64,000 nucleotides of DNA, taken from an uncultured Verrucomicrobiae bacterium. GTDB lineage: Bacteria; Verrucomicrobiota; Verrucomicrobiia; Limisphaerales; Palsa-1400. The stretch covers positions 291,750 to 355,749 of the forward strand of contig CAVPOM010000003.1 in assembly GCA_963707025.1 (NCBI GenBank). Reading direction: 5' to 3'. This document shows, one piece after another, positions 30,001-35,626 of the stretch. Position 1 is the first letter of the stretch, and every line of letters starts with the position of its first letter. A program made the position numbers.

Positions 30001-33000
30001 GCGAACCGGCCGGCGATTCCGGCGCCGGCGCGGGGTAGGCGGCCTGGTGGGCGGATTGAAAATCGCTGTCAACAAATTCTGAGGCGTCGTGCGCTGGCAT
30101 GAGCAGGAGCGTAACGCGGAAAACGCAAAATGCAAAATGCAAAATGCAGGATTATAAATGCCGGAGTTTTAGTTTTCGGCGCCGCGCGTGGTCGGAAGGG
30201 ACGCAGGAAGCCGCATCTCTTCAATAAGCCAGAAGGATTTCAACGCAAAGGCGCGAAGACGCCAAGGCGCAAAGCTGGAAATTGCAAATCGCAAATTGTC
30301 AATTGCAAATTGTCAATTGCGTCGCTTCTGCGCCTTCGCGCCTCTGCGTCTTTGCGTTAAAACCGTACGGACCTTCATAAGGTGGAAACCAACTCGCGGG
30401 CTTTTTGCAAGGCGTCGGGGAGTTTGCCCACCTCTTTGCCGCCGCCGCGGGCGTTGTCCGCCTTGCCGCCGCCTTTGCCGCCGACCAGCGGGGCGATGGC
30501 CTGGATGATCTTGCCCGCCTGGAATTTGGCGGTGGCGTCTGGAGAGACTGTGGCCACCAGGGAGACGGCCCCGTTGGACGAACCACCCAGAACGACCACG
30601 CCTTTGAACTGGCTCTTCAAGGCATCGGCCACGGCTTGGAGGAAATCGCCATCCACGGCGCCGAGGTTTTCGATGATGGCCTGGGTGGTCTGCGTGGACA
30701 TGGTGGACATCGTGGACTTGAGGAGGGCGTGTGCGGTTTCAGCGGCTTGCTTTTGCTGGGAGGCTTTGCGTTGTTTTTCCAGGTCTTTTTGCTGGGTCAG
30801 GAGAGAATCGAGTTTTCTCTCCAGTTCGGCGACGGGGGAGTTGACTTTGCCGGCCAGGGTGGAAATGAGGGTGGTTTCCTCGCGCGCTTTTTCGTAGGCG
30901 CGCAGTCCAGCCACGGCTTCGATGCGGCGAATGCCCGCGGCGACGGCGCTTTCGCTCACGATGCGGAACAAGCCGAGCTCGCCGGTGGCGCGGGTGTGGG
31001 TGCCGCCGCAAAGCTCCATGGAATAACCGTCCAATCCACCGGCGCGGCCGCCGATTTGCACGACGCGAACCAGGTCGCCGTATTTCTCGCCGAAGAATTG
31101 CATGACCTCCTTGCGGCCCTTGATTTGAGCGTAGGGAATTTCGGTCCAGGTGACGCCGGCGTTTTCGAGGATGCGCTCGTTGACCAGCTTTTCCACGTCG
31201 GCGACTTGGGAGGGAGCGAGCGCGGCGCTGCTGAAGTCGAAGGTCAGCTTGTCCGGGCCGACGTAGGAGCCTTTTTGGGTGGCGTCATGGCTGACAACTT
31301 CGTGCAAGGCCCAATGGAGCAAATGGGCGACGGTGTGATGGCGCTGGATGGCGGCGCGGCGCGGGACGTTGACGCGAAGCTCGACCTTTGCGCCCGGCTC
31401 CGGCGCGTCTTTGCCGGCCAGGAAATGGAGGAAGGTGTTGCCGGTTTTCTGAGTATTGACAATCTGCCAGATTTTTCCGCCGGCCTGAATTTCGCCGGTG
31501 TCGCCGACTTGGCCGCCCATTTCGGCATAGAGGGGAGAGGTGCCGAGGGTGACGGCTGTCTTGTCTTTGATGTTGACAGCGGCGAGGACGGTGGAGGAGG
31601 CGGTCAGGCGGTCGAATCCGACGAAATCGGTCGGATGGGACGTATCGAGGTTGGAAGCGGCGATGATTTCTTTTTTTTGGGCGGCGCGGGCGCGGGCGCG
31701 CTGCTCCTCCATCAGCCTTTCGAAATCGAGAGTGTCAACGGCCAGCCCGCGCTCGCGAGCCATAAGCTCTGTGAGGTCCAGAGGGAAACCATAAGTATCA
31801 TAAAGAGTGAATGCCCAATCCCCTGCAAAGAGCGGTTGCTTTTCTTCCATCACTTTCGCAGAACCTTTCGCGATTTTTACATACTCATCAAAGAACTTTA
31901 GGCCGCGATCAAGCGTCTTATTAAACGCCTCTTCTTCGGCCTTGATCACTTCTTGGACATGGGCTTGTTTCTTGCGGAGTTCTGGAAAGACATCCCCCAT
32001 GGTTTCGACGAGGACTTCCACCAGTTTGTAGAAGAATGGTTCGTGGAAACCGAGGGTGCGGCCGTAGCGGACGGCGCGGCGCAGGATGCGGCGCAGGACG
32101 TAGTTGCGGTCGGTGTTGGCGGGGAGAATGCCGTCGGCAATGGAAAAACTCAGGGTGCGGATGTGATCGGCGATGACGCGAAAGGCGATGTCTATTTTTT
32201 CCTGTTCGGATTGCAGGGGAGCGCACGCGCCCTCGCGTGCAGGGGTTGACGCCTCGTCAACCGCATCTTGAGTGTTCGGAGATGCCATCAGCGAGGGCGC
32301 TGATGGCGACACGCGAGGGCGCGTGTGCTCCCCGGAGGTGTCGGTCCACAGCCACGGGTAATCCCCGGTCACCTGCGCGACGCCTGCCTGCCAGGGATTC
32401 TGACAGATGTAATGGAACTTTTCTTCCATGTCGGACGCTCCGCGAATCATCCGGTCCAATGATTCTTGCGCCCAAACGTGTCCTGTCTGGCCGGAAATCT
32501 GGTTAATGTTATGGGCGCTGGCGGACTTGATGCCTTGCAGTATTTCGCGCAGCGGCCAGAAAACCGGCTGGCCTTCCTTGTCCTGTTCCTTGATTTGTGG
32601 CTCGAACAGCAGGTGAACATGGTCGGGCATGACACACGCGGCGTAGAGTTGATACTGCCGCTGTTCGTTGGCGTAAAGAATGCACTTGAGCACAATGTCG
32701 CGCTCGGGGGCGGCAAGTTGGCGGCGCTGGTGCGTGGAAAAAGTGACCATGTATTTGGCCCATGGTCGCTCGAAATGAGGAAGGTTGCGGCGGGAATACT
32801 CGGCCTCGATAACGCCGGACGGTCCAGGAGCCGACCGAGGGGGCGCGGTCGGCAACACGCGAGGGCGCGTGTGCTCCCCGGGCAGGGTGCTGGCGTATTT
32901 TTTGCCGCTGAGGTTTTCCAGACGGTCGAAGATGGGGCGGAAGATGTCGGTTTCGTAGTTGGAGATGACGCGGCTGAAATCGGTGAAATTCCTGGTGTTC

Positions 33001-35626
33001 TGCAGGATGCCCGTCACACGCTCGAAACCCATGCCGGTGTCCACATGCTGGGCGGGCAAGGGGGAAAAGGTTCCGTCGGGATTGGCGTTGAATTGGATGA
33101 AGACCAGGTTCCATATTTCAATGCAACGGGCGTCGCCTTTGTTAACCAAACTGCCTTTGGTGTCGCCGGCAGGTGTCAGGTCAACGTGGATTTCGCTGCA
33201 TGGGCCGCAGGGGCCGGTTTCGCCCATCATCCAGAAGTTGTCCTTTTTGCCGCCGTGGACGACGTGGACTTTGGGGTCCAGGCCGGCGGCGGAGAATTTG
33301 GCGGTCCAAAAATCATAAGCTTCCTGATCCAAGTCGCTGGGCTCGCCTTTGGCTTTGTCGGGGCTGTAAACGGTGGCGTAGAGGCGTTTGGCAGGGAAGC
33401 CCCACTTTTCCACGACCAGTTCCCAAGCCCATGCGATGGCCTCTTTCTTGAAGTAATCGCCGAAGCTCCAGTTGCCGAGCATCTCGAAGAAGGTGTGGTG
33501 ATAGGTGTCCAGGCCGACGTCTTCCAGGTCATTGTGTTTGCCGCCGGCGCGGATGCACTTCTGGGTGTCGGCGGCGCGGGTGGGCTTGCCGGGGATGGCG
33601 CCGGGCCATTGGTCAACGTCGGGCGCGCGCTGGTTGAGGAAAATGGGGACGAACTGGTTCATGCCCGCGTTGGTGAAGAGCAGGCCGGGGGAATCGGGCA
33701 TCAGGCTGGCGGAAGGCACAATGGTGTGCCCTTTGGATTTGAAAAAATCCAGGAAGGATCGTCGAATTTCAGCGGAAGTCATCCGAGCCAGTTTAAAGTC
33801 AGGGGTCTGAAGTGCAAAGCTCTTTTGGCGGAAAAGCGTTGTCCTCCGGCAGGCCGGGCCGGCCTGGCAAAGGATCTTCATCTTCCCTTAAGGTTGACCA
33901 TGTTAGATTGCGGAATGATAAAAAGCAGTTTCGTTTAAACGTTGGTTCAAATAAAAAAAGTCATCATTATGAATACGCCATGGATCACATCTCGCGCGGC
34001 GGCCGGTGCTTCGCGCCGCCGTTTTCTCCAACAATTCGGTCTGGGCGCGGCCCTGTTCACAGTGCGCGGCGCCTTTGCCGAGGAACTGGCGCGCCCCACG
34101 GCTTGGGTGGAAGAAGGCCCGTTCTATCCGCCCAAACTGCCGCTGGACACGGACAACGACCTGATCATCGTCAACGACTCGATTACGCCGGCGATCGGTG
34201 AGATCACCCACCTGAGCGGGCGGTTGCTGGACGGCAAAGGCGATGCGGTGCGCAACGCCACCATCGAAATCTGGGAAGTGGACCACACCGGGGTTTACCT
34301 GGCAGACCGGCCAAATCGAAACAAGTTTGACGCCAATTTCCAGGGGTTTGGCCGGTTTCTCACCAGTTCGACCGGCGAGTATTATTTTCGCACCCTCAAG
34401 CCGGTGCGTTACACCGGACGCCAGGCGCCGCATATTCATTTCAAGGTCAAGATGAAGGGTCGCCAGGCCTGGACCACCCAACTTTTTATCAAAGGCTTTC
34501 CGGGCAATGCCGGGGACGGCGTTTATCAAGGCATTGGGGATGCCCAGGCGCAGGAGACGGTGACGGTGGATTTCGCCCCGCTGAAAGGGTCGGAGATTGG
34601 GGAACTGTCGGCCAAATTCGACATCGTGCTCGGGCGAACGCCGCGGGAGGATGAAAATGGCAATTTGCGGGGTGGCCGCCGTGGCCGGGGCGGCCCGGGC
34701 CAGGGAGGCGGACCGGCCGGTGGCCGCCGATTCGGCCCACCGCCGGGCGAGGGTGGCTAACCCTTGGCGCGGCCGGCAGCTATTGGAGGGAGAGGTTGGC
34801 GCGGGGCTGGCCTGTGCTGGAGGGGCTGACGGGCGCCGGGGCGACCAGGAACCCAACGACGCTATAGACCACCAGCGCGCCGCCCAACCAAAACAGCACT
34901 TTGACGGCGCGCGGGAATCTTTTCGTTTTAGGGGCGTCCGTCTTCATGGCGGCGGCTTGCGCATAAAACGATGAACCAGGAAATAATAAAGAGAGGAGAG
35001 GACGATAATCAAGCCCAATAGCCAGTAAAGGGCATGATGCACATTTCCTTGTATGTCGTTGCCAGCGGCGACGCCGGCCCAGGCGAGGACAGAGCACCAA
35101 AGGGCGGAGCCAAGCAGAGTAAACAGGGAGTAAAGGCGGAAATCCATTTCCACAATGCCCATGGGAATGCCGATGAGATGGCGGACGACCGGGAGGAGGC
35201 GGGCGACAAAGACGCCAAAAGCGCCAAAGCGCGCGGCCCAATGCTCGGCGGCGTGGATCTTGGCCTCGGTGATGCGGACATACCGCCCGTAATGCAGGAC
35301 CAGCGGCCGGCCAGCCCAGCGACAGGCCCAATACATGACCGTCGCCCCCACCCAGGAACCGAGAGTGCCGGCGACCACCACGCCGGTCAGGCTCAGATTC
35401 CCGCCGGCGTGGGCGCGGTAGGCGGCGAAGGGAATGATCGCTTCGCTGGGGATGGGCAAAATGGTGCTCTCCCCCGCCATGAGAGCCGCAATGAGCGGAT
35501 AGCCGCCGCCGGAATCCAAGGTGGCTTTATACCAATCAATCAGCTTGGCGATTTCAGCAGTCACAGGATAGCTGCGGGCGGCGAGACACGGCCCGCCGCG
35601 CGCGGGGGCGGGTGCGCTCCCCGCTA

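Follow-up and report, generated by a model that had tools for sequence, protein, structure and literature searches.

REP-associated tyrosine transposases (RAYTs) are, in the textbook picture, encoded by free-standing genes, and short REPs are known inside genes. Inteins are hosted by DnaE, helicases, aminoacyl-tRNA synthetases (aaRS) and glycyl-radical enzymes, a spectrum similar to that of the embedded RAYTs described below. According to PMC3733652, classical REPs carry a GTAG tag. Bertels and co-workers view RAYTs in general as domesticated genes that are single-copy and inherited vertically.

The window analyzed here is a stretch of 64,000 nucleotides from an uncultured Verrucomicrobiae bacterium, and its alaS gene carries a RAYT cassette. 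Like the REPtrons of E. coli (YafM, PDB 4ER8) and the Pseudomonas RAYTs, the alaS cassette has a HUH/Tyr Y1 fold nearest to 4ER8 and passes the cut-off of the NCBIfam RAYT equivalog. In addition, its own REP hairpins and an inverted pair flank the gene, and the REP is dispersed through the genome. Unlike a REPtron, the cassette lacks its own start, stop and promoter; it appears to be translated inside an essential host gene, its REPs being read as protein linkers. The 5' tag of its REP is GGGGAGC instead of GTAG and, whereas RAYTs are described as vertically inherited, the alaS type turns over between sites and lineages across the order. Intragenic REPs and the Rickettsia palindromic elements (RPE) are likewise palindromic repeats translated in loops of functional proteins, often of replication or repair, and here a solo REP lies in frame in hypF. 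These, however, are short non-coding repeats, whereas in the alaS cassette the transposase itself (~170 aa) travels in frame with the repeats. Inteins with homing endonucleases are also selfish enzyme-coding elements in frame at conserved sites of essential proteins, with patchy presence, empty sites in close relatives and reuse of the same sites. In contrast to inteins, the alaS element has neither a Hint domain nor splice-junction residues and is therefore presumably kept in the mature protein, and its enzyme is a single-stranded DNA (ssDNA) HUH transposase instead of a LAGLIDADG or HNH endonuclease. IS200/IS605 TnpA shares the Y1 HUH fold and the use of subterminal hairpins as recognition elements, but the alaS RAYT comes without tnpB, in one copy per genome, and not as a free-standing insertion sequence. 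An IS200/IS605 transposase was rejected as its identity: NF033573 gives 17.2 bits against a cut-off of 55, and the genome has no second close copy.

A REP-RAYT cassette in the reading frame of alaS

Window positions 30375..33881 on the minus strand translate as a single stop-free frame of 1168 aa. The protein matches the alaS equivalog TIGR00344 (NCBIfam) over its full length and far above the cut-off of 457 bits, covering model positions 1-256 and 261-847, the latter at aa 557-1148, and the Pfam editing (tRNA_SAD) and C-Ala (DHHA1) domains are both in place. The Pfam tRNA-synt_2c match (598.8 bits) is split in two stretches, the first of which is aa 38-331, and AlaRS is broken at position 263 of this model by a 664-bp element. 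Because AlaRS homology begins at aa 38, the true start is probably Met34 at 33782. No second alaS was found in this genome of 88% completeness. The features are as follows.

30375..33881, minus strand: alaS open frame, 1168 codons plus stop (TIGR00344, 817.3 bits)
32889..33782, minus strand: AlaRS aminoacylation domain as far as the loop that follows motif 3; aa 34-331 (Pfam hmm 1-263; dN/dS 0.16 against G268)
30378..32215, minus strand: AlaRS tRNA-recognition, editing (tRNA_SAD) and C-Ala (DHHA1) parts, aa 556-1168 (Pfam, NCBIfam; dN/dS 0.17 against G268)
32216..32879, minus strand: inserted element REP - RAYT - REPIN, 664 bp, with 24-nt inverted repeats GGGGAGCRCACGCGCCCTCGCGTG at its ends (1 mismatch)
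32830..32879, minus strand: 5' REP unit, a double hairpin with a 7-bp stem and CCCT loop, then an 8-bp stem; translated GEHTRPRVLPTAPPRSA (fold)
32352..32777, minus strand: RAYT core, aa 369-510 (NCBIfam, fold match, motifs)
32613-32621, minus strand: HUH motif 'HVH', aa 421-423 (motif position)
32409-32411, minus strand: catalytic Tyr491, in the Tyr motif 'FHYICQNP', aa 489-496
32216..32333, minus strand: REPIN of two inverted REP units (32284-32333 minus; 32216-32265 plus); translated GEHTRPRVSPSAPSLMASP...AREGACAP

The genome-wide survey's note had described a complete RAYT in frame inside the sole alaS, with translated copies of the element's REP on either side, and both points are borne out by the single frame, the domain matches, the two motifs and the REP copies. 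The in-frame insert also stands, but not its bounds at aa 332-557: the insert proper comprises aa 335-555 plus one base, and the residues 'STLP' are native to AlaRS and lie outside it. The REP unit, given as 22 nt, is a double hairpin of ~50 nt. The 5' unit folds with -18.8 kcal/mol (z -3.5; a value that none of 200 shuffles reaches) and the 3' REPIN, 122 nt, with -53.3 kcal/mol (z -9.3). The REP GGAGCACACGCGCCCTCGCGTG occurs three times in the window, at 32856-32877 (minus), 32310-32331 (minus) and 32218-32239 (plus, 1 mismatch), all at the cassette, against a chance expectation of 0.00 in 100 shuffles. The AlaRS insert is a complete REP-RAYT cassette ('REPtron') of a hairpin, a tyrosine HUH transposase and an inverted hairpin pair, located in a variable AlaRS surface loop between the catalytic and the tRNA-recognition domains.

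An assembly of 18 contigs and 88% completeness might suggest an error of assembly or gene calling. However, the same architecture is present in 57 genomes of the order sample, including the single-contig G150 (region L088), and in more than 1000 database proteins from NCBI, JGI and ENA, where 1290 proteins of at least 306 aa match the RAYT at E<=1e-10. In addition, peat and soil metagenome contigs of 90-96% identity span both insert junctions. We reject an artefact, whose probability is negligible.

Fold, selection and REP copies

The Pfam domain Y1_Tnp is located at aa 376-464 (28.3 bits, cut-off 23). The RAYT equivalog REP_Tyr_transpos (NF047646) gives 80.8 bits at aa 369-510 when the whole protein is searched, a narrow pass at a cut-off of 80, and 85.6 bits for the alaS RAYT in a six-frame genome search. 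Its Tyr motif is of the Y-x-x-x-N-P helix type, and among embedded relatives H-u-H is kept in 84 of 85 and the Tyr in all 85. An AlphaFold model of the RAYT, made from an 83-sequence alignment, has a pLDDT of 84.8, and its best Foldseek match in the PDB is 4ER8_A (E 1.5e-7, TM 0.59/0.62), the E. coli RAYT (YafM) bound to a REP hairpin; IS200/IS605 TnpA structures (2XM3, 2VHG and others) follow. A RAYT profile run against PDB sequences again places 4er8 first (E 2e-5). Compared with G268, a genome of the same genus, dN/dS is 0.147 for the RAYT core and 0.161 and 0.174 for the AlaRS parts, with dS of 0.23-0.48, and 1.22 for the REP linkers, where dS is just 0.10. These sequence and model comparisons show that the RAYT keeps its fold and its HUH and Tyr residues under purifying selection, in line with the survey's note. 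Selection of this strength is compatible with a benefit to the host no less than with selfish maintenance.

The six-frame search returned one copy of the alaS RAYT type and no second close copy, as the note had it. In this respect the gene resembles other RAYTs; it differs from a free-standing, vertically inherited gene by its place inside alaS, where it has neither a start nor a stop codon to itself, and by an order-wide pattern that is not vertical. The REP, with up to 3 mismatches, is present in 27 copies in the whole genome, 24 of them away from the cassette, and forms 5 inverted pairs, while a reversed-pattern control gives 0; its dispersal, partly as REPIN pairs, had been noted correctly. 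Just one RAYT in the genome adjoins this REP type. Long stop-free frames over the other genomic copies are mostly upstream or downstream read-through, and among four REP-spanning frames checked with Pfam, the solo copy in hypF is the only clear in-frame case. Among genomes, the same REP is translated in two frames, as GEHTRPRV or GAHAPSRV. Being readable in two frames in different genomes, the REP is therefore conserved as DNA, and the REP-coded segments evolve as DNA and not as protein.

Fate of the insert in the protein

In-frame GTG and TTG codons in the 5' REP, and nothing more, speak for an insert that is removed like an intein or intron, or made separately from an internal RAYT start, leaving cells with a normal AlaRS. 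An intein is rejected. Pfam at E<=0.01 gives no Hint or intein domain, and the splice-junction nucleophiles are missing: the insert starts at Gly335 where a Cys or Ser would be required, ends in Ala-Pro in place of His-Asn, and is followed by Leu556 at the +1 position of a Cys, Ser or Thr. A self-splicing intron of group I or II is rejected as well, as an Rfam scan of 30000-34200 gave only one chance-level miRNA match (E 0.27) outside the insert. An intron, moreover, needs no open frame, yet 96 of 96 copies in the examined loci lie in stop-free frames of at least 569 aa, in phase with the host. Against internal expression, a consensus scan finds no promoter-like site on the gene's strand within the insert. 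Removal or separate synthesis is thus highly improbable.

In the reading that we prefer, alaS would be translated as one polypeptide that includes the insert. The REP-coded stretches, rich in Gly, Pro, Ser, Ala and Arg, may act as flexible tethers, allowing the RAYT to fold as a separate domain while AlaRS still works. In an AlphaFold model of AlaRS 34-840 with the insert, the RAYT core reaches a confidence of ~90 and both linkers (model residues 299-337 and 483-523) stay below 50. Because this model is mediocre (pLDDT 71.8, pTM 0.48; N-terminal residues 22-105 poorly modelled), the low confidence in both linkers is weakly indicative of disorder.

Filled, empty and exchanged sites

The genome-wide survey's note had also called the insert an old, vertically kept passenger, found at the same AlaRS site in other genera. 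The same loop is indeed filled in 19 families, and the window and its congener G268 have cassette, REPs and position in common (dN/dS 0.15 for the RAYT), so the insert is not fresh. Both facts, as well as the purifying selection, would be expected if the RAYT had entered alaS once, early in the order, followed by vertical descent and many precise losses. Other comparative data speak against such a history. Within the window's family, the site is filled in 4 of 13 genomes and empty in 9, and the genera g3 and g6 each have both states. RAYTs at the window's site (site A) form at least five clades, among which RAYTs from site B, site C and ThrRS as well as stand-alone ones are interspersed, in trees that are quick searches on 174 columns and in which many forks have weak support (38 of 84 open). 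For groups named after the tree was seen, AU tests reject monophyly both of the 29 site-A RAYTs together (p 1.7e-10) and of the four from the window's family (p 1.5e-8). Over 26 site-A genes, RAYT distances show no correlation with those of the hosts (Spearman 0.06; Mantel 535/2000). The RAYT of G136, from another family, is closer to that of the window (dN 0.115) than is the RAYT of G239 from the same family (0.161), despite an AlaRS nearly three times farther away (0.174 vs 0.062). The REP begins 0-5 codons past 'STLP', differing by clade. Family f36 has three RAYT clades at the site and, since a single-copy site has room for just one lineage at any time, the presence of more than one clade in a family calls for replacement. 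The insert of G373 belongs to another RAYT clade and has another 5' REP, yet its 3' REPIN is nearly identical to that of the window. A single ancient insertion is largely refuted for the order and quite improbable; the one case of demonstrated vertical descent links the window with G268, and the insert is stably inherited within the genus.

The same patchiness bears on a domesticated RAYT domain, serving AlaRS or the cell, for instance by tethering an ssDNA nuclease to an abundant protein or by regulating REP-bearing transcripts or DNA. Nearly invariant catalytic residues, a dN/dS as low as that of the host enzyme and the general view of RAYTs taken by Bertels and co-workers are in its favor. 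However, presence varies within genera, enzymes with an empty site are intact, the hosts are many and unrelated with several sites per host, and some alaS genes contain two RAYTs. This makes it unlikely that AlaRS itself draws a benefit, while the RAYT may still serve the cell from whichever locus encodes it; taken as a whole, domestication is doubtful.

Sites A and B also hold unrelated inserts without a RAYT. Those at site B, in the family members G205, G337, G388 and G239 and in other genomes, were considered as REP scars and rejected, being helical or repeat segments with no REP signatures; they point to a permissive loop, not to decayed cassettes. P0123 (80% identity), which looked like a stand-alone RAYT, proved to be a fragment from an alaS fusion.

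Hosts and environmental sequences

A RAYT homologue is present in 104 of 401 genomes of the order. Its hosts there include AlaRS (three sites), ThrRS, PFL, PriA, ClpB, DnaE, a DinG-like protein and others, and elsewhere in the phylum RecG, ValRS, HypF, MgsA and Eco57I-like enzymes; MetH is also among the proteins with a related RAYT in frame. Each RAYT clade has its own translated REP type. Taken together, the sequence comparisons show that related RAYTs with their own REP types have repeatedly changed site and host lineage, and that they occupy a small set of permissive loops in numerous large, conserved proteins.

Among 21 listed sequencing runs, 20 contain some of the stretch, at most 0.20 of the sampled words in any run and always as metagenome contigs, and none is an RNA run containing it. 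When X1-X4 were mapped at 85% likeness, the contigs obtained came from relatives. Metagenome joints skipping 736, 826 or 589 bases have sides of merely 26-27 letters, and we read them as empty-site alleles of relatives or as artefacts joining one REP to another; we do not take them for excision in this strain.

Discussion

Our data are best explained by a selfish REP-RAYT cassette that is translated along with essential proteins and persists because their permissive loops tolerate it as a domain, a reading to which we assign a probability of roughly 70%. Having no promoter or start of its own, the RAYT would be supplied with transcription and translation by the host gene, and only a precise in-frame deletion would remove the cassette without cell death. 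The RAYT domain may still cut and join single-stranded REP DNA, and this activity may maintain the 27 REP copies of the genome and allow cassettes to move or be exchanged at REP-marked sites. By analogy, the cassette could be the ecological equivalent of an intein, tolerated rather than spliced out.

With somewhat less assurance, we propose that the REP-RAYT cassettes of Verrucomicrobiota make up a mobile-element class of their own, which has its niche in the reading frames of essential genes. Such elements would lack expression signals, reside as tethered domains in permissive loops, be shielded from deletion by host essentiality, and jump or be exchanged among a few loops within and between genomes, which would make them counterparts of inteins in function, through tolerance in place of protein splicing. 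In the searchable literature, we found no paper describing a whole transposase as an internal domain of an essential enzyme, and the in-frame habit of such elements inside essential genes is apparently widespread and undescribed.

If this is true, selfish genes have a second solution, besides protein splicing, for surviving in an essential gene. The embedded RAYTs would be natural HUH-tag fusions, and their positions would provide natural maps of loops in AlaRS, ThrRS, PriA, DnaE, ClpB, PFL and others into which ~220 residues can be inserted. In addition, close relatives with filled, empty and exchanged sites would offer a tractable system for REP/RAYT movement. As a bolder corollary, an abundant host protein would deliver an active ssDNA transposase at high dosage, thereby coupling REP dynamics in these genomes to how aaRS and replication genes are expressed.

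The RAYT insert of alaS

The alaS gene is a single open frame in which a REP-associated tyrosine transposase (RAYT), flanked by its short dispersed DNA hairpins (REPs), lies within alanyl-tRNA synthetase (AlaRS). Amino acids below are numbered along the alaS product.

Features of alaS and its insert
30375..33881, minus strand: alaS, one stop-free open frame of 1168 codons
32216-32879, minus strand: inserted element at DNA level, 664 bp
aa 376-464: Y1_Tnp, between the AlaRS stretches (Pfam, 28.3 bits, cut 23)
aa 421-423: HUH motif 'HVH' of the RAYT core
aa 491: Tyr491 in 'FHYICQNP' of the RAYT core
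aa 938-988: tRNA_SAD (Pfam)
aa 1074-1166: DHHA1 (Pfam)

Pfam splits the AlaRS class II core into two stretches, the first of which (aa 38-331) covers profile positions 1-263. The alaS equivalog TIGR00344 (NCBIfam) scores 817.3 bits against a cut of 457, with aa 557-1148 aligned to model positions 261-847. No second alaS was found in this 88% complete assembly, where the remaining matches are weak (24 and 16 bits). The frame extends 33 codons (33782-33881) upstream of the Met that begins the AlaRS homology. Since this homology runs from aa 38 on, Met34 (33782) is the likely start, and the 33 open codons ahead of it imply that the annotated 1168-aa product probably begins too early.

The RAYT equivalog NF047646 (NCBIfam) is matched at aa 369-510 with 80.8 bits against a cut of 80, and with 85.6 bits in a six-frame genome search. 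These results bear out the genome-wide survey's note, which had described a RAYT with intact HUH and Tyr motifs in frame within the sole alaS. An IS200 identity fails for the insert (equivalog 17.2 bits, cut 55). In an AlphaFold model made with 83 relatives (pLDDT 84.8), the RAYT finds as its top PDB match 4ER8_A, the E. coli RAYT with bound REP hairpin (E 1.5e-7, TM 0.59/0.62), followed by IS200/IS605 TnpA structures; 4er8 likewise ranks first in a profile search of PDB sequences (E 2e-5). The HUH histidines are retained in 84 of 85 embedded relatives and the Tyr in all 85. Sequence and predicted fold together indicate that the RAYT is a real, conserved enzyme domain. A mediocre model of AlaRS 34-840 (pLDDT 71.8, pTM 0.48) places the RAYT core at ~90 and both linkers below 50, consistent with flexible tethers around a folded domain.

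Structure and constraint of the REP elements

Inverted repeats of 24 nt (GGGGAGCRCACGCGCCCTCGCGTG, one mismatch) bound the insert. In gene orientation, REP unit 1 is followed by the RAYT core, REP unit 2 and the inverted REP unit 3, the last two forming a REPIN (an inverted REP pair). Each unit, about 50 nt long, forms a double hairpin, in which the first stem is constant (7 bp with a CCCT loop) and the second differs in sequence among copies, with compensating changes. The folding energies of the units lie between -18.8 and -21.4 kcal/mol (z -3.5 to -5.7) and were matched by none of 200 shuffles; that of the 122-nt REPIN is -53.3 kcal/mol (z -9.3). Three copies of the 22-nt REP core lie in the window, where 0.00 are expected, and 27 in the genome at no more than 3 mismatches; the reversed pattern has no copy. 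Inverted pairs lie at five genome places, spaced 63-104 nt with heads outward. The survey's description of a RAYT bounded by its own translated REP, dispersed and partly paired, therefore holds. None of the Y1 genes elsewhere in the genome adjoins this REP type.

Outside the window, hypF carries one solo copy of this REP in frame within its Kae1-like domain (C18:743092-743113, locus L115), and there it is read in the alaS frame ('...SSGEHTRPRVSRSAPSPA...'). The genome also has five copies (loci L004-L008: C12:50120, C12:99067, C12:99738, C16:111544, C6:59742) of a second, unrelated Y1-like family ('PRQLRIEYPGAIYHV…'), whose members measure 217-354 aa and extend far at the C terminus; two copies are adjacent and one of these is truncated.

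dN/dS of the window's alaS against its congener G268 (Nei-Gojobori)
RAYT core: 0.147
AlaRS N part: 0.161
AlaRS C part: 0.174
REP-coded linkers: 1.22

The purifying selection claimed for the RAYT is thus recovered. At 0.10, dS in the linkers is well below that of the AlaRS parts and RAYT core (0.23-0.48); taken with their dN/dS, this shows the linkers to be constrained as DNA and not as peptide. In agreement with this, one REP is read in two frames across genomes, as GEHTRPRV in some and GAHAPSRV in others. The peptides flanking the RAYTs are clade-specific and repeat a single hairpin, translated in forward and in reverse-complement orientation; each RAYT clade is accompanied by its own REP type.

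Peptides flanking the RAYT, by clade
Window's clade: GEHTRPRV / AREGACAP
Further clade: GSATVPVA.. / ARDAQQGDRDGRAP
Further clade: GGTGYQPVAAGNLPA / AAGQVARQNGPVARST
Further clade: GSAPAPGAADRALAV / VSREGAGNSARGGRAP
Mostly in threonyl-tRNA synthetase (ThrRS): GSARVPRAVSGVAPET / RRDAEESTRDACAP
PFL and PriA RAYTs: separate REP types

Hosts and insertion sites

The window's insert is one instance of a general pattern. A RAYT homologue at E<=1e-10 was found in 104 of 401 genomes of an even sample of Limisphaerales, a tally that includes the unpublished genome G311. From a subset of these matches we fetched 86 loci with 96 RAYT copies, naming hosts by Pfam and mapping sites against the empty AlaRS of genome G046 or the window genome's ThrRS.

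Hosts of the fetched RAYT copies
AlaRS site A (the window's site): 29
AlaRS site B: 32
AlaRS site C: 1
AlaRS, site unplaced: 1
ThrRS, between editing and catalytic domains: 9
Pyruvate formate-lyase: 4
PriA: 10
Large UDPGP-domain protein: 3
ClpB: 2
DinG-like helicase: 2
DnaE: 1
DUF1156 protein: 1
CarboxypepD_reg protein: 1

All 96 copies lie in stop-free frames of at least 569 aa, some of which end at contig ends, and an assembly or annotation artefact has next to no probability. The 29 site-A copies agree with the survey in placing a RAYT at this site in other genera. In 57 genomes alaS carries a RAYT, with two per gene in six. The ThrRS cassettes (L034, L037, L040, L042, L079, L080, L082, L084, L087) replace ~55 linker residues at the editing-catalytic junction, corresponding to residues 288-346 of the window genome's ThrRS, where the site is empty.

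In a phylum sample, 21 of 401 genomes had a RAYT match, and hosts among the fetched loci were AlaRS (site B), RecG, ValRS, HypF, MgsA and Eco57I-like enzymes. The Eco57I-like hosts, type IIG restriction-modification enzymes of other phylum classes (L124 in G578, L128 in G651; RAYT-like domains of 31-37% identity), are non-essential genes. In MgsA (L126) the RAYT lies past the last MgsA domain, so that it may be a C-terminal fusion instead of an insertion. The protein database gave 1290 matches of at least 306 aa at E<=1e-10; the 120 of these that were listed are mostly AlaRS fusions, with three methionine synthases and two ThrRS. By their NCBI names, relatives fall in Verrucomicrobiota, Verrucomicrobiae and Limisphaerales.

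Site A directly follows motif 3 and separates the aminoacylation domain from the tRNA-recognition domain. Of the 13 alaS genes in the window's family, four have the site filled (the window genome, G268, G239 and G373) and nine have it empty; the empty ones read '...SGKKYASTLP-(5 to 10 variable residues)-EQEKIDIAFRV...'. Filled and empty sites occur within single genera, as in g3 (G373 filled; G118, G337 empty) and g6 (G239 filled; G295 empty). A RAYT domesticated as a domain that benefits its host, a reading that the selection on the core would suit, has to be set beside these empty sites and is in our view unlikely.

Sites A and B also accommodate unrelated inserts that contain no RAYT. In G114 (L104) site A has a QPSG tandem repeat of 104 aa, and in several genomes site B has segments of 39-137 aa overall, including helical ones of 70-137 aa (L016, L035, L072, L076, L105, L111). 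The site A and site B loops are therefore permissive.

Turnover of the cassette

A quick IQ-TREE search (LG+G4, 174 columns) with 87 RAYTs groups the copies by site; even so, the starred branches demand at least five changes for site A and at least four for site B. The site-A clade of the window also contains the site-C copy, and among the ThrRS copies one stands apart from the rest. The window's clade holds the RAYTs of G268 and G239, from its own family, with copies from families f81, f36, f35, f78, f25 and f49; that of G373, of the same family, falls in a different clade. AU tests rejected a single clade for each of three groups chosen after inspection of the tree: the four RAYTs of the family (p 1.5e-8), the site-A RAYTs as a whole (p 1.7e-10) and the site-B RAYTs as a whole (p 1.5e-4). 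Over 26 site-A genes, the p-distances of host (AlaRS N domain) and RAYT are not correlated (Spearman 0.06; 535 of 2000 permutations as high). The dN to the window's RAYT is 0.115 for G136 and 0.161 for G239, whereas the AlaRS distance is 0.174 for G136 and 0.062 for G239, a nearly threefold difference.

The survey's note had read the insert as an old, vertically kept passenger. Occupancy across genera and selection on the core stand, so that its interpretation is supported in part; vertical keeping does not, given the empty family sites, the AU tests and the absent host-RAYT correlation, and we regard purely vertical descent of an ancient passenger as quite improbable. Several lineages cannot share a single-copy site, and f36 alone has three RAYT clades at site A, which indicates that replacement or re-insertion has occurred there. 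The REP starts 0-5 codons past 'STLP', varying by clade, which argues for separate entries of different clades into one loop and not for one event. The G373 cassette (L074, site A) is chimeric: its RAYT belongs to another clade and its 5' REP to a different type, yet the DNA of its 3' REPIN is nearly that of the window, which suggests an exchange of cassettes at sites marked by REPs.

Nineteen RAYTs of ~205 aa truly stand alone (in Chthoniobacterales and elsewhere; P0125-P0178) and form one clade nested among the embedded ones. Their frames open a few codons ahead of the 5' REP and close after the 3' REP, and this read-through of the flanking REPs may be a pre-adaptation to in-frame life. Removal of the alaS insert, or its separate expression, seems highly improbable.

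Discussion

The AlaRS-RAYT fusion is already visible in automatic database names, such as JGI's 'alanyl-tRNA synthetase/REP element-mobilizing transposase RayT'. Our full-text search of the open-access literature found no paper on a RAYT translated inside another gene. In the relevant passages, PMC3733652 describes short REPs within genes, often replication and repair genes, and cites the Rickettsia RPEs; those intragenic REPs are short, whereas alaS carries a whole RAYT in frame. PMC6006769, in the part that concerns them, sets long TnpA-Y1 proteins aside as fusions or annotation errors.

Building on the anatomy, the conserved fold and catalytic residues, the DNA-level constraint on the REPs, the permissive loops, the many hosts and the turnover of sites and lineages, we propose, with a probability of about 0.7, that the RAYT is a tethered, translated and still active passenger sustained by an essential host gene. 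The whole gene would be translated as one polypeptide of ~130 kDa, in which the low-complexity REP-coded stretches tether the folded RAYT and leave AlaRS undisturbed. The RAYT would still be active on REP DNA in single-stranded form, and this activity would maintain the REP population and let the cassette move. Its expression would be supplied by the host gene, and its persistence secured by the essentiality of that gene. We class the element as a REPtron living in frame in essential genes.
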